64,000 nt of DNA from Kiritimatiellia bacterium (GCA_017962605.1 JAGCUY010000070.1:2095-66094), one strand, 5' to 3'; numbered from the stretch's first letter, positions 16,162 to 31,519 are shown. Numbers and translations: made by a program. Notes: generated by a model not told the origin, from the letters alone.

Positions 16162-18228
16162 TCAAAGCAGAATACTCTGTTTTAAAGCATTCCAGTCCTT
16201 TTCGTTCAGCGTATTCACACCAGAATTTGTCACTCGGCCCTTTGCATCAAAGTATAGATCGAGTTCACCTCCTCCGATTGGTGACTGAAAACTCAACCTT
16301 ATATGGTAATCAGAGAATGCTTTTGCAGAAACGAGTTGGAGAGGCTTGCCCTTCAGAGATTGCAAGATGCGAGCGACTATTGTTTCGTGTTGCGGACGGA
16401 CACTAATTTCTGGCTCGGCAACATCTGATTGTTCGGCTTCCTCCCCAAAGACTTCTCCTGTCTTTTTACCAACCAAAGAAGACAAGCGCCTTCGTGCTGC
16501 ATCATCAAGGCCATCGACATGGTTTTCAATGTGGGTAATCATGGCATTCTTGCGGTATATGACATCAACATATCCCGTTTTGTCTTTGCCTTGAACATGT
16601 ATCCGATACCGAGAGGAAAGCTCTTCGATTTGTCCCAATGTCAATCCAATAGATCGAATAACTTCATCGATTGCCGATGACGTCCTTTGAACACAAGTAT
16701 CCACTTCTACAGCCTTATCATAAGACTTATTAGACGCGAAAACATTAGACAAAGCGTCAATATGCGGAGAATTGGCAACGAATAAGTGTTCCTTGGCGCG
16801 TGTTGTAACAGTGTATGCCCAGCGGAAGAAATAACTACTCATGAGATTTAATCCACAATTGTAGTCCGCCCATACATAATTCCATTCACCACCCTGTGAC
16901 TTGTGGCCTGTAACGGCATAGCCGAATTTTACAATTGGTGCGCGAAGCCAAGGCAACTCTGCCATTTTTTCTTTAACCAATTTGTCCCAAAACAGCTTTT
17001 TGCTTCGGTCTTTTCGGAAATCGGGATATTTCTTTCGCAAAATTTCTTCTGCAAAATGTTTTACCCCATTGTAGAGTCCCATTTGGGCAAAACAATCATG
17101 TTCATCCCATTCGGAAAGAATTATGGGTGTAACATTTATCCAGATGTTATCGACCTGACCACGTTCGGGTTCATAAGTCCAACGCAGAGACATCCTCTTA
17201 AACGTGTATGTGAAGGTGAAAGTCTTTTCACTTTCTTTTGGGCGATAATACCCTTGCAAAGAAAAAGTTTCCCCGAAAGTGTTCACAACAGTGAGAAAGT
17301 CGCCATTGAAGAACTGCACCTTCTCTCCAGATGGAAGAAGAATGCGTGTGTTTCTGATGGATAGAAGCCTTTCTCCGTATTCCGGCAATTTGCCAAAATG
17401 CCCCAAAAAACCTCGAATTACAGCATTGTATTCTTGTACTTTGGCATTAGTATGGGCAATGGCAATCTTTTCGTCTATTGAATCCTTCCAATCGGGAACG
17501 ACAGACAATGTCTCTTCAGAGACCATTGAGACATCCTCGTGCGAGGTAAATGAGAAACGATTGAAGTCTTTTGCTTCAAGCGCTGAGCGCAACCTTGTCG
17601 CCTCAGCAAGGATGCCACTCCCTTTGCTTTGACGGAATACCTCGGTAAGTTCTATTACAGTCGGTTTAAATGAGGTTAATTCCTCTATCTTTTCCGCATC
17701 CAGGGCAGGAGGAGTCTCGCATTGCTCCATGACAGGAGGAAGCTGGAAAGAGTCTCCGACGAAAAAAAGAATGTTTGACGTATTTTGAGTCTTAATTCCA
17801 GAATACTGAATCAAATCCCCCAAAAGAGAACCACTGCCGAATTGAAACAACTCACGATCATTATCATGCTTGGAAAGACCGACCATCGAGGCTTCGTCTA
17901 TGATAAAAGCCGTGTTTTCAACATCCTTGTCATCCTTTAGTGGGAAAATCCATTTCAGCGCATCGTCTTGCTCGTCCCGGATTGGTTCATTCACAATGTT
18001 GAAGATTCCTGAATGGATAGTTGAAGTATCAAATCCTGTTCTCTTGTGTAGAACCATCGCAGCCCGACCCGTAGGAGCCATCAGCATCGGGAAGAGTCCG
18101 CGTTCTTGAAGAACTGGCACAAGCGAACGGATAAGGGTTGTTTTACCAGTACCAGCGGCACCCCGGATGATGAAACAGCGGGTACCAGCATCAAGCGCAT
18201 GCAAAATAGTGTCAAGAGGATTTCTCAT
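16162..18228 (-). CDS. SF1B RecD/Pif1-like DNA helicase (AAA_30 + UvrD_C_2-type) with about 200-aa C-terminal extension
   Basis: Motifs I GAAGTGKTT, Ia MAPTGRAA, II IIDEASMV, III VGDSFQLPPV, IV VFRQS, V YAVTGHKSQGGEWNYVW, VI YTVTTRAKEHL. Start codon lies 2 nt after the RT stop. Low-GC gene. Confidence 0.75.
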   Translation of the reverse strand: MRNPLDTILHALDAGTRCFIIRGAAGTGKTTLIRSLVPVLQERGLFPMLMAPTGRAAMVLHKRTGFDTSTIHSGIFNIVNEPIRDEQDDALKWIFPLKDDKDVENTAFIIDEASMVGLSKHDNDRELFQFGSGSLLGDLIQYSGIKTQNTSNILFFVGDSFQLPPVMEQCETPPALDAEKIEELTSFKPTVIELTEVFRQSKGSGILAEATRLRSALEAKDFNRFSFTSHEDVSMVSEETLSVVPDWKDSIDEKIAIAHTNAKVQEYNAVIRGFLGHFGKLPEYGERLLSIRNTRILLPSGEKVQFFNGDFLTVVNTFGETFSLQGYYRPKESEKTFTFTYTFKRMSLRWTYEPERGQVDNIWINVTPIILSEWDEHDCFAQMGLYNGVKHFAEEILRKKYPDFRKDRSKKLFWDKLVKEKMAELPWLRAPIVKFGYAVTGHKSQGGEWNYVWADYNCGLNLMSSYFFRWAYTVTTRAKEHLFVANSPHIDALSNVFASNKSYDKAVEVDTCVQRTSSAIDEVIRSIGLTLGQIEELSSRYRIHVQGKDKTGYVDVIYRKNAMITHIENHVDGLDDAARRRLSSLVGKKTGEVFGEEAEQSDVAEPEISVRPQHETIVARILQSLKGKPLQLVSAKAFSDYHIRLSFQSPIGGGELDLYFDAKGRVTNSGVNTLNEKDWNALKQSILL

Positions 18229-18230
18229 GG

Positions 18231-20069
18231 CTATAGGTCTCCATAAATGCCGAAATTGCTACCAGATTTTTCTTTGCAATAGTAGTCTTGAATCTCTACC
18301 CTTGTTAATCCCTTGAAAGAGCCATAGTAGCTAAATGGCGCTCCATAGTACCCTCGTTTAATTGTCAAGGTCGTGCTGTCGTTTACGGAAAGGTCTTTGT
18401 TGCCATTATCGCAGTCTATCGCCGGAGTTGCGGGATGCTGTTTCCGCCACTCTCTCTTCATGGCCTTTTTCGCCAGTTTCAGAACAGAGTTGCGTGTTCT
18501 ATCGAGGTTTTTAAGTTGAGACACTACTGAAGGACAAGACGAAATGTGGGGCAGAAATACCGCCAGCCAACTTCTGGCAAATCTTGCATTAGCCGGACGA
18601 TCAATCCTTCCCACGCCAATGGCTGTTAGACGCAATTGGAAAACCTTGAAGAGGTCATACCAGGTAAATCCATTCCTAAACTGGGATTGCGCGTCTTTGA
18701 GCATACGAGTAAGTCGCGTCTTTTCCATGTACATTTTATCCTGATGCTTTTTTATAGTTTCCTTTTTTATGCGGACTGCTCCATCATATCGTATCTGATG
18801 GCCCAGAAAACTAATCCATGGCGTACCAGGGCGTCCTAATCCAGTCTCCTTCCAGGCAATGGGGCCTTTTGATTTTTCGGTGAAGTACGCCGATGAATAC
18901 CTCGCACTTTTAGCTATGGGGTGTGTCGGTAGTTTTAATCGTTTCACAGCATCCAAATACCTGTCAAGAGCCTCCTTGCACTTCTTTTTTTCGGGATGTA
19001 CGATAATTATGTCATCGCAAAATCTTGCATAAAACAAGTTCTCATCTGCATCAGCCATAACAGCGCGGTCGGCTTCATCCATGACGATGTTAGCCAAAAG
19101 TGGTGAAAGCGCACCGCCTTGCGGAATCCCTATTTCATGTGGATTCACATCTTCGTCCCCATAAACTGATTGCAGGACACTAATCGGCACACGATCTACA
19201 CACTCGCGCTTAGCAATGATTTCCGGGTCTTCGTATTCGTCAAGATTGCGTGGAAATGCGTAAACATTCAAATATGCTTCAAGCACTTTCCGAGCGCGGT
19301 TGTCAACACCTTGCGGGGCACGGGCGGAAAAAATGTCGAAAGCTCGCCTAATTATATCGTGGTTGATTACGTCAAAGAACTTTTGAATATCGCAATCTGC
19401 CACATAGAGAGTTTGGTTCGTAAAGCGTTTTCTATATTCGATAAGATTGTTTATGGCCGTATGGATGGAATACTTTTTCCCGTTGCGGCGAAAAGCATAG
19501 CAACAGTTCAGCAAATGTGAATCAAAAACATTCCGAAGATATGCGGCAGTTTTTGAAAGAATTACCCGATCTTTTGAATCGGTAAAACACGACAGGCATC
19601 GGTATGAAGATTTCTTGTTCTCTTCGTCCATCGTTTTTACACGTCCTGTATTCTTCCGAATCAACATCAACTCAGGCCTTCTAAATGCGAATTCGCCGAT
19701 GGTTATAGTTTTTTGTATGTCCATGGCAAATGCAACCAGATTTCTGCCCCATTGGGAGTCTTTGAGCTTTCCGGCTTTCAGCATTCCAGAAATAACGCGA
19801 ATGATTGACAATGTGGCAACATCATTTTGCGATAAACCTTTTCGGGCTTCTTTGCCGCCCCGTCGCCACAGACGGCGCGGCGGAAGCATCTTAGTAATGG
19901 ATTCTTCACTTATCTTACTCTTGGGTTCAAGTTCCTTTCCGGCGTCATCGTGCAAAACCAGCCGGTCCCAATACATATGGTATCTATGGCGTGAAGAGGC
20001 AATACGAGTCCGCAAGGCGCACAGCACCTTTACGATGTCATCAAAACTGAAATACTGCTCAAAATCCAT
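18231..20069 (-). CDS. reverse transcriptase (612 aa) with long N- and C-terminal extensions; not intron/retron/DGR-like in context
   Basis: RT motifs 1-2 (CCYAFRRNGKK ... YVADCDIQKFFDVINHD), 4 (IGIPQGGALSPLLANIVMDEAD), 5 (YARFCDDIIIV = YxDD box), 7 (ISFLGHQIRYDG). About 190 aa precede motif 1 and about 200 aa follow the thumb. Low-GC. Confidence 0.8.
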   Translation of the reverse strand: MDFEQYFSFDDIVKVLCALRTRIASSRHRYHMYWDRLVLHDDAGKELEPKSKISEESITKMLPPRRLWRRGGKEARKGLSQNDVATLSIIRVISGMLKAGKLKDSQWGRNLVAFAMDIQKTITIGEFAFRRPELMLIRKNTGRVKTMDEENKKSSYRCLSCFTDSKDRVILSKTAAYLRNVFDSHLLNCCYAFRRNGKKYSIHTAINNLIEYRKRFTNQTLYVADCDIQKFFDVINHDIIRRAFDIFSARAPQGVDNRARKVLEAYLNVYAFPRNLDEYEDPEIIAKRECVDRVPISVLQSVYGDEDVNPHEIGIPQGGALSPLLANIVMDEADRAVMADADENLFYARFCDDIIIVHPEKKKCKEALDRYLDAVKRLKLPTHPIAKSARYSSAYFTEKSKGPIAWKETGLGRPGTPWISFLGHQIRYDGAVRIKKETIKKHQDKMYMEKTRLTRMLKDAQSQFRNGFTWYDLFKVFQLRLTAIGVGRIDRPANARFARSWLAVFLPHISSCPSVVSQLKNLDRTRNSVLKLAKKAMKREWRKQHPATPAIDCDNGNKDLSVNDSTTLTIKRGYYGAPFSYYGSFKGLTRVEIQDYYCKEKSGSNFGIYGDL

Positions 20070-20222
20070 AGGAGAAAAAAAGGAGGCGGCGTCGCGGAAT
20101 TCTACCTAGTTGGCCGCTTTGCGCCCTTTAGGGCGCAGGAATTTGACGCGGGGAACCAATTGGCCTGCAAGCCCCGCCAGAATCACGGTCGTTAGCCGTG
20201 CGCGACGCGCGCCTCCATAAAA
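20070..20222 (-). ncRNA. candidate structured non-coding RNA / regulatory leader immediately upstream of the RT gene
   Basis: 153-nt spacer that is GC-rich inside an AT-rich island. Contains a perfect hairpin TGCGCCC-TTTA-GGGCGCA (about 20119-20136) and further GC palindromes (GCGCGACGCGCGC). No ORF. Confidence 0.25.
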
Positions 20223-22925
20223 TCATTTCACAACCTCCAATGTGACAGCCTTCCACCCAACGCGATCCTTGAGCTTGTCGTAGGATTTCACCGCTACGCC
20301 TCCGATTTCCGTGCCATTTGTTAAGTCCTGAATAAGGCTTTGTGGCACGAAAATATCTTTTGAGTCGCCTGTTCTGTTGCGAACGAAACCATAGTTACGG
20401 CCTTCGGGCCTGTTGAATGTCCCGGAATAAAACATGCCGAAAGAAGGGAACCCTTCGTACTTGACATTTATTATTTCAAGAATATATGATTTGCCGCTTT
20501 TTGCGCTTCTTTCAAGAGCCAATTCGCATACCGTTCCGCTAGGCATGTTAGCCAGACATGGAAGCTTTGCCCAGTCACCTGTGCATGTTTCGCCATTGTT
20601 GCCGATTGTAAACTCTGAACGCCCACGACGTTTGTCTTGATAAGATAGAATGGCAATCTGCTTGGGGTAAATGTCCCATGGGACTCCCTCCTCTCTTTTC
20701 TCAACCTTGAGGACTCGTAGCCGTTCGCCAACCACTTCCGTCCAGATTTTCACGGGCATTCCTGGCGTAGCCATGCCAAGTACGGGAAATCGTCTTGTTT
20801 CAACGCGAACTTCGGTTGAATTTCCAAAATCTGCAAAAATCTTGGCAATTTTCTCATTGCGTTCCTTGTCAACATAGCATGTCATGAGAACGGCATTAAT
20901 GAAAGGCTGGCCGGCAAACGCGATTTCATCTGCCTTGGCCGCAAACTCATGGTACACGTCTTCATTACTATTTGTTGGAGTTGGATCGGTGGTAAACCGC
21001 ATCTTCTCGCCATCTGGAATTGCCTTTATTGTAACCAACTGTTTTTTTAGCAATTCGTCTTTTTTTTGCCGGAGTTGGTAGAGACTCCATTTTTTTGCGG
21101 TTCGGATCTCTTTTACAATCCTCAATTCACATAGAGCCTCAGGTATTTTTCCCATTTCAATGAAGGCGTCAGCAAGCATTTCATGGACGCCTACAAGATA
21201 CGAACTGTCTTTTGCCGGACAAAGCGCTGCGCGGCAAAGGCAGGCAAAGAATTTCTCCCTGTCATCGTGAAATGTTTCGGCAAGAAGTTGCCAAGTCCAA
21301 AACTGAGCCGATTTTTTGCGAGTTATTTTCGCTATATACTCTCTGGCCTTGACGGATTCGCCGCTTTCAACAAGCAGTTTTCCATAATAGAATGGAAACC
21401 ATTCCTGCGAAGGGTATCTTTCCATGGCCATCCTGATGAAATCCAATATCCATTTGTGGCCTACCACGAACGCAAGGTTTTCACTACGGCCTTTTTGTTT
21501 TGCACACTTATAAAGCAATCCTACTACAGTTTCAACAAGAGAAGGAAATGATTTGTTCGGATTGTCTTTCGGGATGAACGGCGCGTAATCTTCTTCGGCG
21601 AAATTGGAGACATCCCAATTTTTGACAAAATGGAGGAATTGAATGGCCAATTGTTCTTGGATATTCTCACCCGCAGCCTTTACTATCTTTGCATAGATTC
21701 GCAGATATTGCGAATAGGCAACCGAAGGCTTCGGAACGGCCGAGCAGCAATTCACCAAATTGAAACCTTCGACGACGCAATTTGTGACGGCATCTTCCTG
21801 CCCGTTCTTTTCTCGTCCCTCTGGGAAAACGTCATTGAGAATTTTCTTCAATGACGCAGGAGTCAAATCTGCCGCATTTGGATTCCAGCCTTTCTTCAAG
21901 GCTTCGTCTATTGTTCGATAAAGCGCCCAGATTGCACTGGTCTGGGCTTTCTCGCTTTCTGGGTTTAGCGGAATGGCGGCACAGTATTCCCTGAAGGCAC
22001 GGGGATAATCACCAAGCTTGTCACAGACAGAAGCCAATGCCATGTGTGCAAGGAAACTTGTTGGCTGTTCACTAATAAGCGATTCTGCCTTTGACAATGC
22101 TTCTGCCAGCGACTCCGGGTTTGCTGCCAATGCTTTTATTTCACCAGTCCCACTCAAAAACTGGTCAGCTTTTTTTAAGTCTATTGGTCTTGTCGCTTTG
22201 ACTTTGCTTTCTCCTGCGGCTTCCTCATTAAGAGAGAGGTTACGCATTTCGTTGGCAAAGAACTCGACTAGCTTTCGATTCTTAAGGTTTTCCATCGATT
22301 GTTTTAGGCAATCATGGAGCGTCCAAAACATATCTAGTTGGCATGAGGTATCATCACATTTATCAAGCAGTTTTGCCCTGCATTCCTCGAATTGTGCCGA
22401 AAGGTGTTCCTCGCTTGAAAGAGCCTCTGAGGCATAATGTTGAATCAGCTTTTTCAAAATCATGTCATATTCACTATCTCCAAGAGAAAGCCCTTGAAGG
22501 ATAGAGACGAATCTTTCTCGCGTTTTCTGAAGAGTTTCTTTTTGTGTTTTTCCAAGAACATGTAGAGACTTAAGGGCGGCGATTGCGTTGCATCCAGCCC
22601 AGCCAACTGCGCTCGCATTTTTAGCGGTGTCGAGATTGTAGAGGTCGCAGGCCATCAGGAACGCTATAATGCGACATGATTGCAATTCAATATTGTCAGA
22701 GCCACAAGTAGTAATTGCAGCTTTTGCCTCCCGTCTTATGGCCGTGCAAACCTTGAATGCATCCTGACGGTTCGCTGCTGCATATGTTATCCATGACTTT
22801 TGCACTTCATCAGCATAGATCCCATTCAAGGCTGCAATGACATCTACGTCTTTGCGCGTCGCAAGGCCGGAAGCTAGCAACTGCTGCAAATCATCTAGTT
22901 TCCATGTTGTCGTGAAGGTTGCCAT
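20223..22925 (-). CDS. 900-aa alpha-helical (TPR-like) protein with C-terminal cold-shock-domain-like OB fold
   Basis: Mostly helical, repeat-like N-terminal 650 aa. C-terminus NYGFVRNRTGDSKDIFVPQSLIQDLTNGTEIGGVAVKSYDKLKDRVGWKAV parallels the CspA RNP1/RNP2 motifs (KGFGFI ... DVFVHFSAI). No nucleotide-binding motifs. Low-GC. Confidence 0.45.
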   Translation of the reverse strand: MATFTTTWKLDDLQQLLASGLATRKDVDVIAALNGIYADEVQKSWITYAAANRQDAFKVCTAIRREAKAAITTCGSDNIELQSCRIIAFLMACDLYNLDTAKNASAVGWAGCNAIAALKSLHVLGKTQKETLQKTRERFVSILQGLSLGDSEYDMILKKLIQHYASEALSSEEHLSAQFEECRAKLLDKCDDTSCQLDMFWTLHDCLKQSMENLKNRKLVEFFANEMRNLSLNEEAAGESKVKATRPIDLKKADQFLSGTGEIKALAANPESLAEALSKAESLISEQPTSFLAHMALASVCDKLGDYPRAFREYCAAIPLNPESEKAQTSAIWALYRTIDEALKKGWNPNAADLTPASLKKILNDVFPEGREKNGQEDAVTNCVVEGFNLVNCCSAVPKPSVAYSQYLRIYAKIVKAAGENIQEQLAIQFLHFVKNWDVSNFAEEDYAPFIPKDNPNKSFPSLVETVVGLLYKCAKQKGRSENLAFVVGHKWILDFIRMAMERYPSQEWFPFYYGKLLVESGESVKAREYIAKITRKKSAQFWTWQLLAETFHDDREKFFACLCRAALCPAKDSSYLVGVHEMLADAFIEMGKIPEALCELRIVKEIRTAKKWSLYQLRQKKDELLKKQLVTIKAIPDGEKMRFTTDPTPTNSNEDVYHEFAAKADEIAFAGQPFINAVLMTCYVDKERNEKIAKIFADFGNSTEVRVETRRFPVLGMATPGMPVKIWTEVVGERLRVLKVEKREEGVPWDIYPKQIAILSYQDKRRGRSEFTIGNNGETCTGDWAKLPCLANMPSGTVCELALERSAKSGKSYILEIINVKYEGFPSFGMFYSGTFNRPEGRNYGFVRNRTGDSKDIFVPQSLIQDLTNGTEIGGVAVKSYDKLKDRVGWKAVTLEVVK

Positions 22926-22961
22926 GTCAATCTCCGGTTATTGTCATTCAATTTGCAATTG

Positions 22962-24170
22962 CTAACCCTCAAAAACTAATCGTATCTTCGGACTTGGGCG
23001 TATACATTTTTCATACGGACGTGGGATGTCAATATCGCTCCCCTCAAAAAAACGTTTCACGTGGTCAACTATCTGACAACGTCTAAACTTCGCATCATCT
23101 CGTTCCAATGAACCATCACCTATGTCCCCGCTATAAGGGTGAAAGGTATTTAAATGGCCATTTTCATCACAGATATCAAGGCCTTCGGGAATCCTCATTG
23201 AGTAAATGCCGCCAACAATTGCACGGTTGTGAAACGTATGCGTCCTCCTAGAGTTATAATCCTTTTTGAGTAGCAAAACACGTATCAACAAACCCATTGC
23301 ATTGTTGTGCCTTATTTTATTGGTTCTTCCCATTTCTTCAATCAGATTAATCACTTCTAAGGCTGAAAACTTTTCATATTCCACAGGGTATTTCGAGATT
23401 ATCGTCAGTTCCGTAATATCAGAATTTGACATAAATGGTTGCAACAACGCTTTTGAGGAATGCTTCCATCGGTTTTGATTGTCAATGTGTTCGGAAGTAT
23501 TATCATCATTAGGTTTCGCAATTGCGCTCCAGTACCGGTCGGCAAGCACTACTTGTCCTTCTGCTGCGGCACAAAAAGCATTCATATAGTCATAAAAAGA
23601 GTTTTTGGAACTATCATCATATGTTTGTTCTCCTATCCATTTTTTACGCAATATTTCTGTATCACTTTCTTCATAGTTATCTATTGATTCACAGACGAAA
23701 GATTGTCGTAAGTTGTTTATTGATAACCCTTCACTAAACTTGTCGGTTATTATAACGAAGCCCTTGATTTCTCGTGGGGTGGCAATACGCCGAGTATGTT
23801 TGGTCCATGCTTGGATACATTCTTTCAAATAGTCATTATCATCGCCCGTGGACTCGTTAATCGCTACTATATGTTTTCGATCTTCATAAAGGCTATCATA
23901 ATTTTTGAGAACGTTGCAAAGATTGCCAAAAAAGCCGCCTTCTTCTAGTTCGGCATATTCCTCCGCATATTGTTCTGCAATGGTCGTAATTAAAGCAAGA
24001 GGTTTGCGCGCTTTACTAAACTCGTCAAGAATGAGAATACCATTGGCTTCAATAGCATTGCGAAGATTGACAAGTCTGCTTTGAAGTTGTACGGCATACA
24101 CTATGTTATTCGCCGCCTTATCGATGCAACGGCGAATATGCATCCAATCTATGAGATACTGAACAATCAC
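22962..24170 (-). CDS. hypothetical 402-aa protein, partner of the adjacent ABC-type ATPase
   Basis: GTGA start/stop overlap with the upstream ATPase gene. Very AT-rich. No confident domain. C-terminal C-x-x-N-G-H...H...C...D-H region is a possible but unconvincing nuclease-like motif. Confidence 0.4.
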   Translation of the reverse strand: MIVQYLIDWMHIRRCIDKAANNIVYAVQLQSRLVNLRNAIEANGILILDEFSKARKPLALITTIAEQYAEEYAELEEGGFFGNLCNVLKNYDSLYEDRKHIVAINESTGDDNDYLKECIQAWTKHTRRIATPREIKGFVIITDKFSEGLSINNLRQSFVCESIDNYEESDTEILRKKWIGEQTYDDSSKNSFYDYMNAFCAAAEGQVVLADRYWSAIAKPNDDNTSEHIDNQNRWKHSSKALLQPFMSNSDITELTIISKYPVEYEKFSALEVINLIEEMGRTNKIRHNNAMGLLIRVLLLKKDYNSRRTHTFHNRAIVGGIYSMRIPEGLDICDENGHLNTFHPYSGDIGDGSLERDDAKFRRCQIVDHVKRFFEGSDIDIPRPYEKCIRPSPKIRLVFEG

Positions 24171-25228
24171 CTCACGCCCTCAATTCCGAAGAATTCATCG
24201 ACAACTCTTGTTCGAGCAGTAAAGAATCCACCCGGCCATCTCGTTCGATAGTTTCCATAGGAGTCGGTCTTTATCTCATCCACTATACTACCCTCTTCGG
24301 TTTTTGTAACATATAGCACGGAAAGGTCATCTGGCGTAATCGTTCCCATCCTAAGGAAGTTTTTTAGTTTCAAAGCCATTAGTTCGCTATGGCTCTCAAC
24401 AATAAGCTGTCTGTCTCGATTCTCATTAGCGGTCTTGAAAATGAAATTCATGAGACTGGATATTTGCCGCTCGTTGACATGGGATTCCGGCTCTTCAAGT
24501 GCAAAAAGATGTTTTTGCCCCGCCCTCCATTTGCAAAGGCTCAGTCCTGTCTCATACAATCCGTCTATCCCTGCTCCTGTATTGTCTCGCACGACAGTTA
24601 TACCAAAAGTTTTGTCTTTAAGTCTGCTAAAGTCAAGGGCCTCATAAGGGACATTTAGTTCCGAAAAAAACTCATTAACAAATTTGATTGCATCCGTCCC
24701 AAGAAGGAGTGCTTCGTCCAGACTCGTTTTTTTCGTTTCGTCGATTCTGGTCCGAATTGGACGAGCGGCTTCTTGGTGAATCATTTCTGGAACGCCATTG
24801 ACATACGGATCTTTCAAACTCTGATGAATACGTTTCCTCTCTTCAACATCGGTCGGCCTTTCATAAAAGCTATGGACAGCCCCTGAATATGGAGTTTCAT
24901 AGCCGATGTACTTTAGAGAATGTCCGTTTTCACTTTCTCGCCCTTCTTGCCTTGCAGAATACTCATATTTTGGGGAGTGTCCCAAAGAATCTGCGGATGT
25001 TGTTATCCTCAATTTGATTTCCAGATTTGTGTCGCCTGAAAAAACATACTCTTTAAAATTAGCACGAATGGCGGCTACTTCGTCGTTGCATATCATGCGC
25101 AACAATTGAAGGAAAGTGCTTTTCCCGGCGCTATTGTCACCAAAGATAAAGTTGATTCGCCGCAGAGAAAAATCTACTCCTGGGTCACCATAGCACTTGA
25201 AGTTTTTCAGTTGAATTCGCCTAATCAT
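24167..25228 (-). CDS. ABC-type (AAA_15/AAA_21, SMC-head-like) ATPase, defence-associated type
   Basis: MIRRIQLKNFKCYG N-terminus typical of the family. Walker A GDNSAGKST. Walker B/D-loop LFALEEPESHV ... LIVESHS. Likely start at 25228 (MIRR) rather than the track start at 25318. Confidence 0.65.
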   Translation of the reverse strand: MIRRIQLKNFKCYGDPGVDFSLRRINFIFGDNSAGKSTFLQLLRMICNDEVAAIRANFKEYVFSGDTNLEIKLRITTSADSLGHSPKYEYSARQEGRESENGHSLKYIGYETPYSGAVHSFYERPTDVEERKRIHQSLKDPYVNGVPEMIHQEAARPIRTRIDETKKTSLDEALLLGTDAIKFVNEFFSELNVPYEALDFSRLKDKTFGITVVRDNTGAGIDGLYETGLSLCKWRAGQKHLFALEEPESHVNERQISSLMNFIFKTANENRDRQLIVESHSELMALKLKNFLRMGTITPDDLSVLYVTKTEEGSIVDEIKTDSYGNYRTRWPGGFFTARTRVVDEFFGIEGVR

Positions 25229-25262
25229 GAGCAAACCTCTCCTCCAAAAACAAACGATAAGA

Positions 25263-26417
25263 TTATACCAAAAAATGGCTTTCTTTGATAAGGTCTGGAC
25301 ATCCGCAGACATCCGCAACTATTTCCCTGTTCCTCCACTTGATTCGTTGCAGGGGGAATGTGACAGGGGCGTTGCGCTTGGGGACAAGTGTTTCCACGGC
25401 TGTGAAGCCGGCGGCGGCAAGGCTTTTGCGGAGGTTCGACATGGTCTTGGTCAGGTCTTCCGCGAACTTCTCGTTGGAGAAGAGCGAACCCTCCTGGAAA
25501 GTGGCTATCCAGTCGCATTTGCCGGATGCATGGTTTTCCGTGCCATGCAGGGCGAGTAGTCGCCTATGGAGGTCACGGATAGGGCACCCGCCAGCAATCA
25601 AAAGGAGCGTCGCAAAGCATGGGCGGCTCATGGGGACTGTCGCCCCGTCGAGTGTCACCCAGCCATTCCATGCGTCGATTTCAATCTCAGGATAAACAAC
25701 GGCTGGCGGTGCGACTTCCTGAACCCGCGAAACAAGTGTTCCGTAATTTGGCGGCAGCGACTTGAACTTCTCCTGATACCACCCACGCATGCGCACATAC
25801 GGCACCTCGAACAGCTCGCTTTTCAGCGAAGCACCCGCATGACTCTTTCCCGTAAGCAGGGACTTGTAGCGCGTTCCCTTTTTGGGGAAGAAGAAGGGCG
25901 GCTCACTTCCACCCTCCAATGCTGGCGGCAGCAACACATGGTAAACCTTGTCGCAATCGCGGCCGAGAAGCGTCATGCAGGAAAACATGAGGGCGCTCAT
26001 TGTCTTTCGTCCGCCTGCAATCGATACGTGGAGTTCCGTCCCGCAATCCTCTGTGAATTGGCGTAGTTGCGAGAGCATGAAGTTTGCTGCGCGGAGATTG
26101 TCGTCGCCCGTCCTGAGATCGTCGATTTCGTTGCCATGCGCATCAGGGATGGCGCGAATGGATGCGCTCCCGAAAACGAGACGCCCTTCGACATCAAGCC
26201 CGCTCCGCTTCATGCAAGCCAACATGTCGTTCCAAACGCCCCCTTCGAGAAGCGCTTCGCAAAGACATCTCTTCCCGCTCTTCGTCGTGATGGCGACGAC
26301 CTCGTCAGGCACAACCGGAACATCACAATGGGCCAGCGCCCATGCGGTCTCCGTGAGAATCGACGGCGTCGTGCCAACAACGGCCACCAAAACTGCCTTC
26401 TTGTCCTTTTCCATCAC
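25263..26417 (-). CDS. CARF-domain protein (CRISPR-associated NE0113-like Rossmann sensor) with uncharacterised C-terminal domain
   Basis: Strand-1 motif VLVAVVGTTPSILTETAWAL and strand-4 motif LHVSIAGGRKTMSA match the two CARF signatures. 384 aa. GC-rich, host-like composition. Directly upstream of the AT-rich island on the same strand. Confidence 0.45.
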   Translation of the reverse strand: MMEKDKKAVLVAVVGTTPSILTETAWALAHCDVPVVPDEVVAITTKSGKRCLCEALLEGGVWNDMLACMKRSGLDVEGRLVFGSASIRAIPDAHGNEIDDLRTGDDNLRAANFMLSQLRQFTEDCGTELHVSIAGGRKTMSALMFSCMTLLGRDCDKVYHVLLPPALEGGSEPPFFFPKKGTRYKSLLTGKSHAGASLKSELFEVPYVRMRGWYQEKFKSLPPNYGTLVSRVQEVAPPAVVYPEIEIDAWNGWVTLDGATVPMSRPCFATLLLIAGGCPIRDLHRRLLALHGTENHASGKCDWIATFQEGSLFSNEKFAEDLTKTMSNLRKSLAAAGFTAVETLVPKRNAPVTFPLQRIKWRNREIVADVCGCPDLIKESHFLV

Positions 26418-27676
26418 TATTCCCCCTCTAGCAGAAAGTCGTAGGCGTTGACTTGGTGGACGCCATTGTTCGAGGCTGGCAGATCCATGTCGAGCGTAAT
26501 CAGCGTCTTGGGGTAGTGGTCGCGTATCGCCAAAAGAGGCGCGTATTCGCGCATCCGCGTCGTTTCGTCCCGCACTGTCTCCGCAACCTGGTAATAGCGG
26601 ATGTCGTCGCCATCCCGCGTGACAAAATCGACTTCTCGGCCGTCATGTTGCCCAACCATGACATTTCCCGAACGGCGCAGCAACTCAAGATAGACGATAT
26701 TCTCCAGCATGCGCCCCGAATCGCCGGAACGGTTGCCCAGAAGACGGTAACGCAATCCCATGTCAACGGCATAGTATTTGCACCCGCTTGTGAGTACATC
26801 CCGTCCGCGAATGTCATAGCGCGGGGCCTTTAGGAAAAGGAAGGCGTCGCACAAGGCATCAACATAGCCCTCGACCGTGTTGCCGTTCGTCCTGGCACCG
26901 GCGGAGGAAAGCGAGGTGGCGATGTTCCTGAGGCTCGTCAGATTGCCGATATTGTCCAAGAGGAAACGAGCTATGCGGTCGACCAGCCCCGCGTCCGTCA
27001 TCTTCCGCCGTCGCAGAACATCCTTCACCAGAACGGTATTGTAGATGCCGTCAAGATACTCGCCTACAAGCCTCGCATCGCCCCGCAGTGACGGAACATA
27101 CGGAAAAGAACCGAAGCGAAGGTAATCTAGGTAATGACGGGTGTAGTCCCCTGTCGCGCCGATGGCGTTGCAGTATTCGCGGAATGACAGCGGCTGCATC
27201 TTGATTTCAACATAGCGGCCGGAGAGAAATGTCGCGAGGTCGCCTGAAAGCATGTTGGCGTTCGAACCCGTGACATAGACGTCGATGTTCTTGCGCGAAT
27301 GGAGTCCGTCAACCAGCTTCTCGAACTCCGGCAAACGCTGAACCTCGTCAAGGAAGACATATGTCTTTCCATGAGTGGCAATCTGCTGCTTGATGAGATT
27401 CCAAGCATCGCGCCATGACGAAAACTCCGGCGTATCGGGATCCTCGAAGTTGAGGGCGACAATCCGGCTGTCAGGTACGCCGGCGCGCTTCAAACTGTCA
27501 CGAAAGATTTCAAGGATCGTGGACTTTCCGCAACGGCGGACGCCTGTCACGACTTTGACAAGATCATGGTCTCGCCAATGTTCCAACTGGCGCACGTAAT
27601 ACGGCCTGCCGAAGATAGTCTTTTCGCTGTTGTCCATAAGCAACTTCCCGATATAAAAACACTTCAATTGAATCAC
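26417..27676 (-). CDS. AAA+ ATPase, AAA_14 + DUF4143 family
   Basis: Walker A GVRRCGKST, Walker B VFLDEVQ, and a C-terminal region typical of DUF4143 ATP-binding proteins. 1-nt overlap with the CARF gene. Confidence 0.65.
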   Translation of the reverse strand: MIQLKCFYIGKLLMDNSEKTIFGRPYYVRQLEHWRDHDLVKVVTGVRRCGKSTILEIFRDSLKRAGVPDSRIVALNFEDPDTPEFSSWRDAWNLIKQQIATHGKTYVFLDEVQRLPEFEKLVDGLHSRKNIDVYVTGSNANMLSGDLATFLSGRYVEIKMQPLSFREYCNAIGATGDYTRHYLDYLRFGSFPYVPSLRGDARLVGEYLDGIYNTVLVKDVLRRRKMTDAGLVDRIARFLLDNIGNLTSLRNIATSLSSAGARTNGNTVEGYVDALCDAFLFLKAPRYDIRGRDVLTSGCKYYAVDMGLRYRLLGNRSGDSGRMLENIVYLELLRRSGNVMVGQHDGREVDFVTRDGDDIRYYQVAETVRDETTRMREYAPLLAIRDHYPKTLITLDMDLPASNNGVHQVNAYDFLLEGE

Positions 27677-28723: not shown

Positions 28724-31519
28724 CTAGTGCATTTCCCTTGAGAGGGAGACGACTTCCATGAGGGTGCGGTCGTCGAGGCCGGCAAGCCAGCTGGCGCCGT
28801 CGGTCACGATGGTGCCTGCAAGCTGGCGCTTGCCGGAGATGAGGTCGTCAATTTTGGACTCAAGTGTCCCGTCGCAGATGAAGGTGTGGACGAAGACTGT
28901 CTTGGTCTGGCCTATGCGGTGGGCACGGTCGGTCGCCTGGCTCTCTGTCGCGGGATTCCACCAGCGGTCGTAGTGGAAGACGTGGTTGGCGCGGGTGAGG
29001 TCGAAGCCAAGTCCGCCCGCGCGGATTGAGATTAGGAAAATCGGCGGCCCCGACGGCTCCTGGAACTTGCGGACCATCTCGGCGCGGGCGGTGGCCGGAA
29101 CTCCACCGTGGAGGAAGGGGACCTCGAAGCCGAACTTCTCCGAGAGGTGGGCGGCCAGGAGGTGTCCGAAGGTAGCATACTGCGTGAATACGAGCGCCGC
29201 CTCGCCAGATGAGACAACCTGGTCGAGCATTTCGTCGAGCGTGGCGAGCTTGCCGGACTGCTCCGGGTCGAGCGTGCCCGAGCCGTCGGTGGGATAGTCG
29301 CAAATCTGCTTGAGGCGCGTAATGAGGGCGAGAACGGCCCCGCGCCTGGATATGCCTTGGCGTCCGGCGAGGTCCTTTTCGGCTGCGGCTGTCTCGGCGG
29401 CGTAGAGCGACGCCTGCGCGACGGTGAGATGGCAGAAGACCTTCTCCTCGACCTTGTCGGGGAGTCCGGCGGCGATTTCCGGGTCGGCCTTGACGCGCCT
29501 CAAAACGAATGGCGCGACAATGCGGCGCAGCTGCGTGGCGGCCTCAGCGCTGGCGTCTGCCGGCGCGGCGGAGCCGAACTTGCGTTCGAACTCGGACTTG
29601 CCGGGGAGAAGCCCGCGGTTGACGAAGTCCATGATGGCCCAGATGTCGGTGATGCCGTTCTCGACGGGCGTGCCGGTGATGGCGAGCCGCCAGGAGGCGT
29701 CGAGCGAACGCGCCGCGCGCGACTTCATTGTCTCGGGGTTCTTGATGTTCTGCGCCTCGTCGAGTGCGACAATCGCCCAGCGGATCTGCCCTATGGACTC
29801 AATCTCCGCCGCGAGCATCTGGTAGCTGGTGATGCAGATGTCCTTCCTGTTGGCCTTCGCAATGAAGTCTGCGCCGTGGGGGCGCTCAAGGCCGTGGTAT
29901 ATCCACGACGAGAGCGATGGGGCAAAGCGCCGCGCCTCATGGAGCCACTTGAGCATGATCGACATCGGGCATACCACGAGGAAGGGGCCGGTCACGCCGT
30001 CGCGGCGCGCGTCGAGGAATGAGACAATCGCCTCGATTGTCTTGCCGAGGCCCATGTCGTCGGCCAGGCATGCGCCAAAGCCCGACCTGCGCAAATAGGA
30101 GAGCCAGTCCAGCCCCTGCCGCTGGTAGGGGCGCAGCGAGCCGGCGAAGTCATCCGGAACTGCGACCTGCTTCAGCCTGCCGCCTCCGCGCAGCGGTGCA
30201 GTGAGGCGACGCGCCTCCGCAGGCAGCGCCGCATCCGGGACCTCAACGGAAATCTCGCCGCCTACGCCCATGCCGAGACGCACAAGGTCGCGCAGGCTCG
30301 TCGTGCGGCTGGCAAGCGTGGCGAGGGTGGATGCGGCCTCCTTGACCAGTTCGGGATCGACATTCATCCACTTGCCGCCGATTTTGGCGACGGGGACTTC
30401 GTTCTCCGCGATCCACTTCAGCTCGCGGGCGGAGATGCCTGTGCCGCCAAGGACGACCTCCCACTTGACATTGACGATGGAGTCGAGGGAGAAGGCGCCC
30501 TCGCGGTGGATGCGTTCAGCCGACACGGCGCGGATGAAGGGGCGTCTCGCGGAGGCGGGCTTCCACCAGCGCGGCGCGAAGACGGGGAACCCGGCGGCGG
30601 CGAGGCGCGGCATCGCCGACTCCATGAAGGAGCGGAGGGCCGCGCCGTCGAGAGTCGCGGCGGCGAAGCGTCCGGCTGAGCCGCCGTCCTCATCCGAGAG
30701 GCCGTGGAAGAGGCGCGAAGCGCCGCCGAGGGCCAGGAGGATGCGGCGTGCTGCGGCGGGGCCGATTTCATCGAGCAGCTTGCGCGTTACGGGGCGCGCG
30801 GAGGAGTCGGTAATCGCCACTGGGACAAGCCGCCAGAGCGGGCTGACGGAATCGCTGCCGGTGGGGTCGGCGATTTTGAAGCCGAGCGCGGGGGATTCGC
30901 ACTGCGCGGGCATGGCCTGGCCGCGCCAGGTTTCGAGCGATGATGCGAGTTTGGCTAGGTCGGCGTCGCTGCCGACGGCGACCTCGCCATTAGGCGTGGC
31001 CAGAGACGCGAGGAAGAAGGAGTGCGGGTTGCTTGGTGAGAAGCGCTCGAGGAGCAGGCTCTTGAAGGGAAGGCAGAACTTCCGCATCTGGATATCGACG
31101 GCGTCGAGGAAGAATGCGTAGGGGGCGGATACGCAGGACAGAGCCTGCGAATCAGGACAGGAGGGTGAGGGAACGCAGGACGGAGCCGGAGAATCAGGAC
31201 GGGAGACGACGGACTCAGGGCGGAAGGCGCTGGCCGCAGCCTCGCAGAGGGTGGCGAGGCGGGCGCGGTCGGCGGCGCAGAGCAGGGGCGTCCAGCGGCT
31301 GCGGCGGCCGCTCAGCGAGGGCAGAACGCATTTCGCCTCAATGGCCTCGGTGGCGAAGCGCCAGAGCGCGGCGAGGGCCTTGAGGTCTGCGCCGAGTTCG
31401 GTGCCTTCCGGCGGCTTCGCGAAGAGCGCTGCCGGATTGGGGCAGGGGACGGGGCGTTGCGCCCCTTCCTTCCACACCCAGAGGCGTCCGCGAGTCCAAT
31501 TGCCGTGAAGGATGTCCAT
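28724..31519 (-). CDS. SNF2-family helicase (RapA/HepA-like) with long N-terminal region
   Basis: DEXD box (LADDMGLGKTIEAI, DEAQNIKN) and helicase-C motifs (GGLGFDLTRANHVFHYDRWWNPATESQATDRAHRIGQ). Confidence 0.8.
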   Translation of the reverse strand: MDILHGNWTRGRLWVWKEGAQRPVPCPNPAALFAKPPEGTELGADLKALAALWRFATEAIEAKCVLPSLSGRRSRWTPLLCAADRARLATLCEAAASAFRPESVVSRPDSPAPSCVPSPSCPDSQALSCVSAPYAFFLDAVDIQMRKFCLPFKSLLLERFSPSNPHSFFLASLATPNGEVAVGSDADLAKLASSLETWRGQAMPAQCESPALGFKIADPTGSDSVSPLWRLVPVAITDSSARPVTRKLLDEIGPAAARRILLALGGASRLFHGLSDEDGGSAGRFAAATLDGAALRSFMESAMPRLAAAGFPVFAPRWWKPASARRPFIRAVSAERIHREGAFSLDSIVNVKWEVVLGGTGISARELKWIAENEVPVAKIGGKWMNVDPELVKEAASTLATLASRTTSLRDLVRLGMGVGGEISVEVPDAALPAEARRLTAPLRGGGRLKQVAVPDDFAGSLRPYQRQGLDWLSYLRRSGFGACLADDMGLGKTIEAIVSFLDARRDGVTGPFLVVCPMSIMLKWLHEARRFAPSLSSWIYHGLERPHGADFIAKANRKDICITSYQMLAAEIESIGQIRWAIVALDEAQNIKNPETMKSRAARSLDASWRLAITGTPVENGITDIWAIMDFVNRGLLPGKSEFERKFGSAAPADASAEAATQLRRIVAPFVLRRVKADPEIAAGLPDKVEEKVFCHLTVAQASLYAAETAAAEKDLAGRQGISRRGAVLALITRLKQICDYPTDGSGTLDPEQSGKLATLDEMLDQVVSSGEAALVFTQYATFGHLLAAHLSEKFGFEVPFLHGGVPATARAEMVRKFQEPSGPPIFLISIRAGGLGFDLTRANHVFHYDRWWNPATESQATDRAHRIGQTKTVFVHTFICDGTLESKIDDLISGKRQLAGTIVTDGASWLAGLDDRTLMEVVSLSREMH
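31120..31225. repeat. in-frame tandem repeats (GGACGGAGCCGGAGAATCAGGAC-type) inside the SNF2 gene, encoding SRPDSPAPSCVPSPSCPDSQALSCV
   Basis: Same repeat family as 33075-33205, 33580-33675 and 35785-35875. Confidence 0.7.

Follow-up and report, generated by a model that had tools for sequence, protein, structure and literature searches.

In Menshen, NsnB is an ATP-binding cassette (ABC) ATPase of the AAA_15 family with a DUF3696 C-terminus, in which a GxG motif replaces SGG, and NsnC combines an inactive PIN-like N-terminus with a C-terminal effector domain of one of several types, PB-PLD1 among them (Li et al., NAR 2025; PMC12065111). In PB-PLD1, a conserved Asp/Glu follows one strand and an HDR motif precedes a later one; by structure and by profile, the domain is most similar to MIT_C (PMC12065111). 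NsnC is polymorphic, and in predicted models two NsnB DUF3696 regions clamp its N-domain (PMC12065111). In the type I-A retron, a reverse transcriptase (RT), a non-coding RNA (ncRNA) with its multicopy single-stranded DNA (msDNA), four ABC ATPases and an HNH nuclease are brought together in one complex, whose nuclease becomes active upon degradation of the DNA by phage nucleases (PMC11974896). No published mechanism was found for the third type of system relevant here, TOTE. We analysed a 64,000-nucleotide stretch of DNA from a Kiritimatiellia bacterium (GCA_017962605.1, JAGCUY010000070.1:2095-66094; hereafter called the window), in which a gene for an ABC ATPase is followed by a gene for a partner protein. 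We consider it probable that this pair is the transducer-effector arm of a single, multi-gene, RT-based defence operon of the TOTE type, working by the mechanism proposed below.

The operon occupies a low-GC stretch of the window (~16.1-25.3 kb, compared with 59.4% GC for the whole window), in which every gene is on the minus strand. The two genes of the pair are:

24167-25228, minus strand: ABC ATPase, NsnB-like, 353 aa, ATG start preceded by GGAGGAGAGG
22962-24170, minus strand: partner, 402 aa, GTG start

An earlier, sequence-only reading of the window had described a 353-aa ATPase and a 402-aa partner joined by a GTGA, and both open reading frames (ORFs) were confirmed: the GTG start codon of the partner gene lies on the TGA stop codon of the ATPase gene. 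This 4-nt overlap, or a near-abutment of the two genes, is seen again in related loci, and the ATPase and the partner are translationally coupled. Neither ORF is a chance ORF, because both proteins have real homologues. A 353-aa protein 100% identical to the ATPase is recorded from a Kiritimatiellae metagenome-assembled genome (MAG; P0003). ATPase homologues all begin with MI(K/R)RIQ, and the N-terminus MIRRIQLKNFKCYGD is present in the ATPase of the window. A longer ORF with a TTG start, reaching position 25318 in a mechanical ORF list, was discarded, as homologues give it no support. The partner gene, described from the outset as very AT-rich, is indeed the most AT-rich of the operon (39.8% GC, compared with 43-46% for the remaining operon genes).

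The order on the minus strand is CARF regulator (where present), ABC ATPase, partner, tetratricopeptide repeat (TPR)-DUF7017-S1/CSD protein, structured ncRNA, RT and superfamily 1 (SF1) helicase. The elements that surround the pair are:

25263-26417, minus strand: Cas_NE0113/CARF protein, 384 aa, directly upstream of the ATPase
20223-22925, minus strand: TOTE-type TPR-DUF7017-S1/CSD (OB-fold) protein, 900 aa
20082-20216, minus strand: GC-rich RNA element, 15-bp closing stem and three hairpins, with a U-tract at 20075-20081
18231-20069, minus strand: RT of the UG/Abi class, 612 aa, Pfam RVT_1 1.6e-19
16162-18228, minus strand: SF1 (RecD/Pif1-like) helicase, 688 aa, with a weak TBP-TOTE-like C-terminus

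Related loci were collected by a motif-seeded scan of species genomes with an ATPase profile, and 80 fetched loci were scanned with hidden Markov models of the ATPase and partner families and with the other proteins of the window. The ATPase scores at least 240 bits in 33 of the 80 loci. The partner gene is found immediately downstream in 32 of these 33, the exception being a contig that ends 0.5 kb past the ATPase gene. The TPR-DUF7017-S1/CSD gene comes after the partner gene in all 28 loci that reach far enough, followed by the RT gene where the contig extends. ATPases scoring below 110 bits never have partner, TPR and RT neighbours. The organisms and samples that yielded the related loci include Kiritimatiellae, Lentisphaeraceae, a Verrucomicrobia MAG, and metagenomes of rumen and gut. 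In two minimal islands (L007 and L008) only the ATPase, partner, TPR and RT genes are present, between unrelated genes (DinB-like polymerase, LysR, polysaccharide export), which defines a four-gene core. The SF1 helicase gene, absent from L007 and L008, follows the RT gene in most loci or lies upstream of the core, at times divergent together with a LysR gene. The order of the four core genes is kept in several lineages of the Planctomycetes-Verrucomicrobia-Chlamydiae (PVC) group, even though partner identity falls to about 16-27%, and among the loci recovered here the pair was never seen alone or without the TOTE TPR gene and RT context. Because the order is kept and the pair never occurs outside this context, we interpret it as one arm of a single RT-based system, with a functional analogy to type I-A retrons. 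The sequence-only reading had left open whether the pair belongs to the RT system or is an independent second defence system. The former proposal agrees with the succession of TPR and RT genes in every sufficiently long locus, from the PVC group as well as from gut and rumen metagenomes; the latter found no support. The pair had also been placed at the 5' end of the island. It is not the edge of the conserved unit, because the CARF gene (25263-26417) adjoins it upstream, both here and in many related loci.

An autonomous two-gene ABC-ATPase/effector system (HEC-03-like, PARIS-like, or a Menshen devoid of its sensor) merely located beside an RT/TOTE system would be another way to account for the pair. 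Two-gene systems made of an ABC ATPase and a PIN, NERD or TOPRIM protein (HEC-02/03) work alone, the pair is swapped as a unit between operons that are otherwise 82% identical (see below), and a promoter-like site is located just upstream of the ATPase gene:

25262-25291, minus strand: promoter-like site TTATCA-18 nt-TGnTATAAT, from a consensus scan (pattern match only)

This site, with 10 of 12 consensus matches and an extended -10 TG, lies 34 nt upstream of the ATPase ATG and falls within the 3' end of the CARF gene. Nevertheless, we regard autonomy as improbable given the presence of the TOTE TPR gene in 28 of 28 sufficiently long loci, the exact four-gene composition of L007 and L008, and a synteny that outlasts the divergence of the partner across the PVC-group lineages. 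In addition, the TPR gene starts 36 nt past the partner stop codon, with no terminator-like site between them, and a scan of the IMG/VR viral contigs, where portable two-gene systems are common, revealed no relative.

The ATPase belongs to the NsnB (Menshen) type of ABC ATPases and carries DUF3696 at its C-terminus. It harbours a Walker A motif, GDNSAGKST (G30, K36, S37), a Walker B motif, LFALEEPE (E245-E246), and GAG (218-220) in place of the ABC signature, with G218-A-G220 invariant. The switch histidine of the H-loop, H280, is also invariant and lies within ESHSEL; the SHS tripeptide that had been taken for a D-loop thus belongs to the H-loop. The DUF3696 region (297-336) carries the invariant residues W331-P332-G-G334-F-F336 and is followed by a terminal helix (337-352). 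Among 31 members of the ATPase family, Walker A, the EE of Walker B, the H-loop, GxG and the C-terminal WPxGxF are all invariant. In Pfam, the protein matches AAA_15 (9.4e-17), AAA_21, AAA_23 and, at its C-terminus, DUF3696 (5.4e-5; 23.8 bits for a cutoff of 22). NsnB is both the best and the only full-length match among the PADLOC models (1.7e-26; residues 1-345 aligned with 1-341 of 345), the lower-scoring ones being PDC-M55A, AriA (9.8e-19) and a HEC-03 model (8.3e-17), the latter two resembling the C-terminal part, and GajA. The NCBIfam PtuA model scores far under its cutoff (E 0.008). An AlphaFold2 (AF2) model (predicted local distance difference test, pLDDT, 86.6) ends in a beta-hairpin and the terminal helix, and has no coiled-coil insertion. 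No TOPRIM domain was detected in the ATPase with Pfam or in the AF2 model, the 353-aa protein ending with DUF3696 and the helix. Foldseek searches with this model retrieved Rad50/SMC heads, OLD, GajA and PtuA/retron-IA ATPases (9n69, 9l7p, 8ee4). The best profiles (NsnB, PDC-M55A, AriA, GajA) and the lack of a coiled coil agree with the initial assignment to defence-type ABC ATPases rather than to housekeeping SMC/RecF proteins. The more specific label, PARIS/Septu/OLD-like, captured the right class, in which an ATPase holds an effector, but the closest named system is Menshen, with its NsnB/NsnC proteins.

The scan also showed that close relatives of the ATPase share the neighbours found in the window, whereas distant ones (22-27% identity, in Bacteroidales) have another arrangement, namely a DUF3696-containing ATPase, an unknown protein of ~350 aa and a GmrSD_N/DUF262 protein (e.g. 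L011 and L014). These distant loci are Menshen-like trios, because they match the PADLOC models PDC-M55A/B/C and NsnA/NsnB. Gene calling and scanning of the related loci examined revealed no DUF262 (NsnA) gene, L011 and L014 being distant relatives that have one, and none of the neighbours scanned in the window (9113-31519) has a DUF262/GmrSD_N domain. Upstream of the operon in L020/L021 (250-3941), two AAA_15+DUF3696 ATPases (486 and 453 aa) flank a 285-aa protein without Pfam match; this module may represent a further DUF3696-ATPase defence variant.

The partner has no match among the Pfam, PADLOC or NCBIfam models, and a word-indexed search of 5.8 billion proteins retrieved only two homologues, of 85% and 37% identity. 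When 1.84 billion cluster representatives were searched with a profile, 44 were retrieved, nearly all of 360-430 aa. The partner family is thus small and hyper-divergent. An AF2 model built from a 41-sequence alignment (pLDDT 90.4, predicted template modelling score 0.89) consists of three parts, the first of which begins with a distinct N-terminal tip (N-tip):

24015-24170, minus strand: partner N-tip, residues 1-52, beta1, two helices and beta2, motif MIxxYxIDW, the best-conserved segment
23586-24170, minus strand: partner N-domain, residues 1-195, alpha/beta, PIN-like element order
23127-23585, minus strand: partner MIT_C-like phospholipase D (PLD) domain, residues 196-348, alpha/beta, D...HxR...GxD
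22965-23126, minus strand: partner C-terminal tail, residues 349-402, one short helix and three strands in the AF2 model

Thus, the partner comprises an alpha/beta N-domain of PIN-like order and an MIT_C-like PLD domain with invariant Asp, His-x-Arg and Gly-x-Asp motifs. The tail is poorly conserved (family mean identity 12.5%). Invariant positions in the family are M1, D211 (codon 23538-23540), H314 (23229-23231) and R316 (23223-23225), and near-invariant ones are I7-D8-W9, N43-G44, W178, S238, N249, G330, D332 and F343.

DSSP analysis of the AF2 model gives the element order b1-a-a-b2-a-a-b3-a-b4-a-b5-a for the N-domain, which is that of PIN domains. Among the acidic residues of PIN type only the first, D8, is conserved, and the four conserved acidic active-site residues that PIN nucleases carry on a 3-2-1-4-5 parallel sheet were not found in the partner. 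Foldseek returned no significant fold match for the N-domain; among the non-significant ones were the FEN/PIN-like structures 5hml and 3zdc.

The signature of the PLD domain in the family is [IV]-x-D-[PR]-Y ... F-H-[DN]-R-F-[IV] ... I-G-x-G-L-D. In the AF2 model, D211 comes right after a strand (205-210), and H314-x-R316 right before another (317-320). Subfamilies that score 25-50 bits against the partner profile keep MIxDYx[IV]D, I[IF]DRY and FHDRF[IV]CS...IG[KR]GLD. The top ranks of a Foldseek search of the partner against the Protein Data Bank (PDB) are all of the PLD superfamily (PLD3, PLD1, PssA, poxvirus F13), with weak statistics (the best, PLD3, having E 7e-3 and a probability of 0.90), and the BFVD database agrees. 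The Pfam MIT_C family gives weak matches with one or two members of the partner family. For a profile comparison we used the MITD1 C-domain, whose sequence was confirmed against PDB 2YMB. Aligned with its profile using hhalign, the second domain of the partner scores 94.6% (E 7e-8, 110 columns), with the DPY, HDR and GxGLD motifs aligned; this value was reached once divergent partner subfamilies were added, from 12% with a single sequence and 62% with a shallow profile. Searches of the PDB with sequence profiles of the whole partner or of its PLD domain found nothing meaningful, and the canonical PLD motif HxK(x)4D is not present in the partner, which has HxR instead.

With no confident nuclease motif beyond a weak C..NGH..H...C..DH patch, the partner had initially been suggested as a possible divergent effector of HNH, TOPRIM or DUF4435 type, or as something new. 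This patch is not conserved in the family, in which D211, H314, R316, G330, D332 and I7-D8-W9 are, and the two domains described above take the place of the proposed ones. AlphaFold modelling, which had been suggested as a check for DUF4435/TOPRIM, HNH and PD-(D/E)xK folds, showed none of them and revealed a PLD-like domain. The HNH, TOPRIM/DUF4435 and PD-(D/E)xK candidates, which have no Pfam, PADLOC or NCBIfam match, were therefore rejected.

Comparisons with the closest loci showed that the components of the operon have evolved at different paces. In L001, identities to the window proteins are 64% for CARF, 76% for the ATPase, 36% for the partner, 83% for the TPR protein, 82% for the RT and 51% for the helicase. 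In L005 and L006, they are 66-83% for CARF, 53% for the ATPase, 83% for the TPR protein, 82% for the RT and 52% for the helicase (L005), and BLASTP detects nothing between their partners and that of the window (16% identity in an alignment). When the DNA of the window is compared with that of L006, a single uninterrupted block of 81.6% identity extends from position 22938, within the 36 nt that separate the partner stop codon from the TPR gene, across the RT gene and into the beginning of the helicase gene (17527). Similarity is 69-77% over the CARF gene and the 5' portion of the ATPase gene, and none is detectable at the nucleotide level in the body of the partner gene. A sharp recombination or divergence boundary is thus present at 22938 (window 22938-24370 compared with L001, L005 and L006). 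Residues 1-52 of the partner are 75% identical between the window and P0002/L002, the remainder being 28-31% identical, and the DNA similarity blocks extend from the ATPase gene into the first ~170 nt of the partner gene and then end. From these patterns of identity and DNA blocks we conclude that the body of the partner is a hypervariable cassette and that the N-tip evolves together with the ATPase. By analogy, the N-tip might be the element that docks onto the ATPase.

The RNA element is a candidate RT-associated ncRNA. The 153-nt gap between the TPR and RT genes has a GC content of 65%, in an operon of 45% GC, and the element has a minimum free energy of -69.4 kcal/mol (z -3.3). A covariance model built from 8 loci identified it in 19 loci, always between the TPR stop codon and the RT start codon, and in none of 8 control loci. 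It has this position in the window and in L001, L002, L005-L009, L019, L020, L026, L028, L031-L033, L037, L039, L044 and L045. Over the 19 sequences, in an alignment fitted to the covariance model, the 32 base pairs are paired at 91.5% and 21 show compensatory changes, a result reached by none of 500 shuffles. No Rfam family matches the element. An ncRNA with a long closing stem just upstream of the RT is a theme of retrons, DRT2 and DRT9, and the element may serve the RT as a template or primer.

We infer the mechanism by analogy with the predicted NsnB4-NsnC2 complexes, PARIS, Septu and the type I-A retron. An oligomer of the ATPase would grip the N-tip of the partner via its C-terminal DUF3696 region and thereby hold the single-HxR PLD domain in a monomeric, inactive state. 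Sensing, the task of NsnA in Menshen, would fall to the TPR-OB protein, the helicase and the RT together with the product derived from its ncRNA. Infection would perturb this sensing complex, and ATP binding or hydrolysis would then release or re-orient the partner. The released partner would dimerise, completing a PLD-type active site, and the dimer would cleave a phosphodiester substrate, probably nucleic acid, resulting in growth arrest or in degradation of the invader. Single-motif PLD nucleases such as Nuc and BfiI form one active site per dimer. The ATPase-partner pair is the only nuclease-like candidate detected in the minimal operon using Pfam and PADLOC, and it would thus be the 'E' effector of the TOTE system.

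Several observations weigh against this interpretation. The complex, its stoichiometry, the dimerisation and the nuclease activity are all drawn from the analogies above, and TOTE/PDC-M16 systems themselves are candidates only. The PIN-like assignment of the N-domain follows from the element order of a predicted model. The PADLOC NsnC and PDC-M55B models miss the partner, whose profile also shows no resemblance to the NsnC-like proteins encoded in the trios with DUF262 (L011 and L014). An autonomous module, too, would be exchanged like a cassette in the way that the pair is, and extreme variability such as that of the partner is found in sensor surfaces no less typically than in effectors. The MIT_C domain of MITD1 is a membrane-binding domain without known catalysis, and the motif of the partner is HxR, as opposed to the catalytic HxK of PLD enzymes.

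These last points also bear on the possibility that the pair does belong to the RT system but that the partner is a non-catalytic sensor or adaptor, for instance a decoy or an MIT_C-like module that binds membranes or nucleic acids, with killing carried out by the RT product, the helicase or a host factor. The MIT_C of MITD1 is such a binding module, and the partner is the fastest-evolving component (36% identity, compared with 76% for the ATPase, 83% for the TPR protein and 82% for the RT, in L001), as is typical of phage-contact surfaces. The Menshen study also proposes that targets are recognized by the variable N-domain (PMC12065111). On the other hand, Asp, His-x-Arg and Gly-x-Asp persist at ~20% overall identity, down to subfamilies scoring 25 bits, a pattern expected of an active site, and no other obvious toxic effector domain was detected with Pfam and PADLOC in the minimal four-gene operon. 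We hold a non-catalytic partner to be an unlikely but serious alternative and retain the proposal of a caged effector. We also envisage, more tentatively, that the operon represents an undescribed class of RT-based immunity that has converged on the logic of type I-A retrons. In such a class, a UG39-like RT and a dedicated, covarying ncRNA of ~135 nt would give rise to a nucleic-acid product under the watch of a TPR-OB (TOTE) protein and a helicase, and the NsnB-type ATPase would cage a hypervariable MIT_C-type PLD protein, active as a phosphodiesterase only once released and dimerised.

The other genes of the operon were characterized using the same profile collections. The TPR protein matches DUF7017 (3.5e-27), S1CSD-TOTE-2 (5e-13) and TPRs in Pfam, and PDC-M16B (4.6e-65) in PADLOC. 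A second, shorter DUF7017 TPR protein (~630 aa) is encoded after the RT gene in L009 (16584-18476), L020 (13157-15049), L037, L042 and L045, its gene being located between those of the RT and the helicase in L009 and L020. The RT matches the PADLOC RT_UG39 model over its full length (3.2e-131) and reaches at most 42 bits with retron RT models, whose cutoffs are at least 235. UG39 RTs have been linked to VirE/PriCT-2 primase-polymerases, not to TOTE or ATPase genes (Mestre et al. 2022). The RT of the window thus has a context that differs from the published UG39 context, and either the UG39 label covers two gene contexts or the PADLOC model is broader than the published group.

The helicase matches AAA_30, AAA_19 and UvrD_C_2 in Pfam, and PDC-M16A (9.2e-116) in PADLOC. 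Its TBP-TOTE match is under the cutoff of 27 bits (E 0.0082, 16.2 bits), and the domain is clearer in orthologous helicases (L020, L026, L028). In the window, the helicase gene is followed by a 1228-aa gene of 59% GC with matches to TPR and hydrolase-like N-terminal domains. A DUF1848 gene, for which there is no counterpart in the window, lies beside the helicase end of the operon in the P0002 contig (GCA_016648615.1), L002 and L026, and on one contig an AbiEi/AbiEii pair is found beyond it.

Upstream of the ATPase gene, the CARF protein matches Cas_NE0113 in Pfam (4.2e-28), cas_NE0113 in NCBIfam (9.9e-43) and CARF5 in PADLOC (7.7e-56). It has a C-terminal extension of ~170 aa without assignment, and neither CRISPR-Cas nor cyclase genes are found nearby. 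The CARF gene is syntenic in L001-L006, L019, L028, L030, L033, L035, L039 and others, and its place is taken by a LysR-type gene in L008, L023 and L026. Occupation of this position by a CARF or a LysR gene points to a regulator slot, suggesting that transcription of the operon is ligand-controlled from there. Further upstream, a gene for an AAA_14/DUF4143 ATPase (26417-27676, minus strand; PADLOC PDC-S01, 3.8e-145) lies between the CARF gene and that of a 4Fe-4S protein. In L006, the Fer4 gene is directly adjacent to the CARF gene, with a diverged AAA_14 gene (25% identity) on its other side, and the AAA_14/DUF4143 gene of the window therefore looks like a separate insertion. A few kb upstream of the island, past the 4Fe-4S protein, a 931-aa SNF2-family helicase with DUF3670 (28724-31519, minus strand) is encoded by a gene with a host-like GC content of 67%.

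The window has no transfer RNA (tRNA) gene, and the genes beside the island include none of integrase type or otherwise linked to mobility. This bears on whether the pair could be an addiction module, akin to toxin-antitoxin (TA) systems, that stabilizes the island, with the ATPase neutralizing a toxic partner and no sensing of infection. The two genes are tightly coupled in translation, AAA_21 is annotated as 'putative AbiEii toxin, Type IV TA system', and an AbiEi/AbiEii pair is present at the end of one related contig. Yet apart from the lack of integrase, tRNA or other mobility genes, a joint function is favoured by the fixed order in which the pair precedes the TPR gene, the ncRNA and the RT gene, and the Walker A, Walker B and H-loop, all intact, point to regulated cycling of the ATPase over simple sequestration, making an addiction module very improbable.

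Each part of the operon has a described relative: NsnB, NsnC with PB-PLD1, the TOTE TPR-OB protein and helicase (PDC-M16), and the UG/Abi RTs. Their combination, in which a Menshen-type B-C module without DUF262 is joined to a TOTE TPR-OB protein, an RT and a covarying ncRNA, was not found in the literature searched, although the original TOTE description (Aravind et al. 2022) may mention it. The Menshen transducer-effector pair would thus be separable from its DUF262 sensor and coupled to a front end made of an RT, an ncRNA and a TPR-OB protein, which supports a modular, 'sensor-swap' view of such systems. Residues D211, H314 and R316 provide a catalytic hypothesis, amenable to mutagenesis, for the MIT_C-type PLD domain, which also occurs in human MITD1 and in BREX BrxL C-termini, where catalysis is only suspected. 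A conserved RNA beside the RT and a defined effector pair make TOTE systems experimentally tractable. If all components form one system, deletions should be designed on one unit of five or six genes plus the RNA. Should the operon indeed represent a new class, it would provide the first evidence that MIT_C-type 'HDR' PLD domains are enzymes, that the Menshen B-C module is a portable effector cartridge for unrelated sensors, and that TOTE systems use a templating RNA.

Compared with known systems, HEC-03, PARIS, Septu, Gabija and OLD resemble the pair in that a defence-type ABC ATPase is paired with or fused to an effector. They differ from it in being autonomous, whereas the pair is never alone, and in having TOPRIM/DUF4435, HNH or NERD domains that it lacks. 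Unlike in PARIS (AriA-AriB), the partner is not a DUF4435/TOPRIM protein, and AriA models score under NsnB; unlike in OLD and GajA, no TOPRIM domain is fused to the ATPase. The HNH partner of Septu (PtuA-PtuB) has no equivalent here, as no HNH match was obtained and the family does not conserve the Cys/His patch. HEC-03 pairs its ATPase with a PIN-domain protein, and the PIN catalytic acidic residues are not conserved in the partner of the window, save D8.

With the MIT_C domain of MITD1 (PDB 2YMB/4A5Z), the partner shares a colinear series of motifs, namely strand-D-P-Y, H-D-R before a strand, and I-G-R/K-G-L-D. Identity is only ~17%, and here the domain is fused to an N-domain of PIN-like topology and encoded in a bacterial defence operon. 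In MITD1, MIT_C is coupled to an MIT domain for ESCRT-III binding, and it is not known as catalytic.

TOTE/PDC-M16 is represented in the operon by the TPR-DUF7017-S1/CSD protein (PDC-M16B) and the SF1 helicase with a TBP-TOTE-like C-terminus (PDC-M16A). PDC-M16, a label not found in the literature searched, is defined by these two genes, whereas here the ATPase-partner pair, the RT and the ncRNA are equally constant and the helicase is dispensable.

The likeness to Menshen is closest for the pair itself. Its ATPase combines AAA_15 with DUF3696 and has GxG for the ABC signature, as in NsnB, and its nearest relatives outside the operon context sit in DUF262-linked trios. The coupled, downstream, polymorphic partner, with its N-domain of PIN-like order and its MIT_C-like PLD domain (compared with PB-PLD1 by description only), would have the architecture of NsnC, though it is missed by the NsnC models. 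Its variable body and conserved N-tip parallel the polymorphism seen in NsnC and the clamping predicted for the NsnC N-domain. The differences are an EE Walker B, where EN is reported for NsnB, and the absence of NsnA (ParB/DUF262) from the window and related loci, where the TPR-OB protein, the RT with its ncRNA and the helicase are found instead.

The type I-A retron differs in its RT, since that of the window is UG39-like and reaches 42 bits with retron models for a cutoff of 235, and in its effector, which is HNH rather than PLD-like. The operon also has a TPR-OB protein and an SF1 helicase in addition, and follows another gene order. As in the type I-A retron (Retron-Septu), however, an RT is accompanied by a structured ncRNA with a long closing stem immediately upstream, the model of the ABC ATPase matches PtuA/retron-IA structures, and the partner is a small protein of nuclease type. 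This parallel suggests that the RT product may restrain an ATPase-nuclease effector by the same logic as in the type I-A retron.

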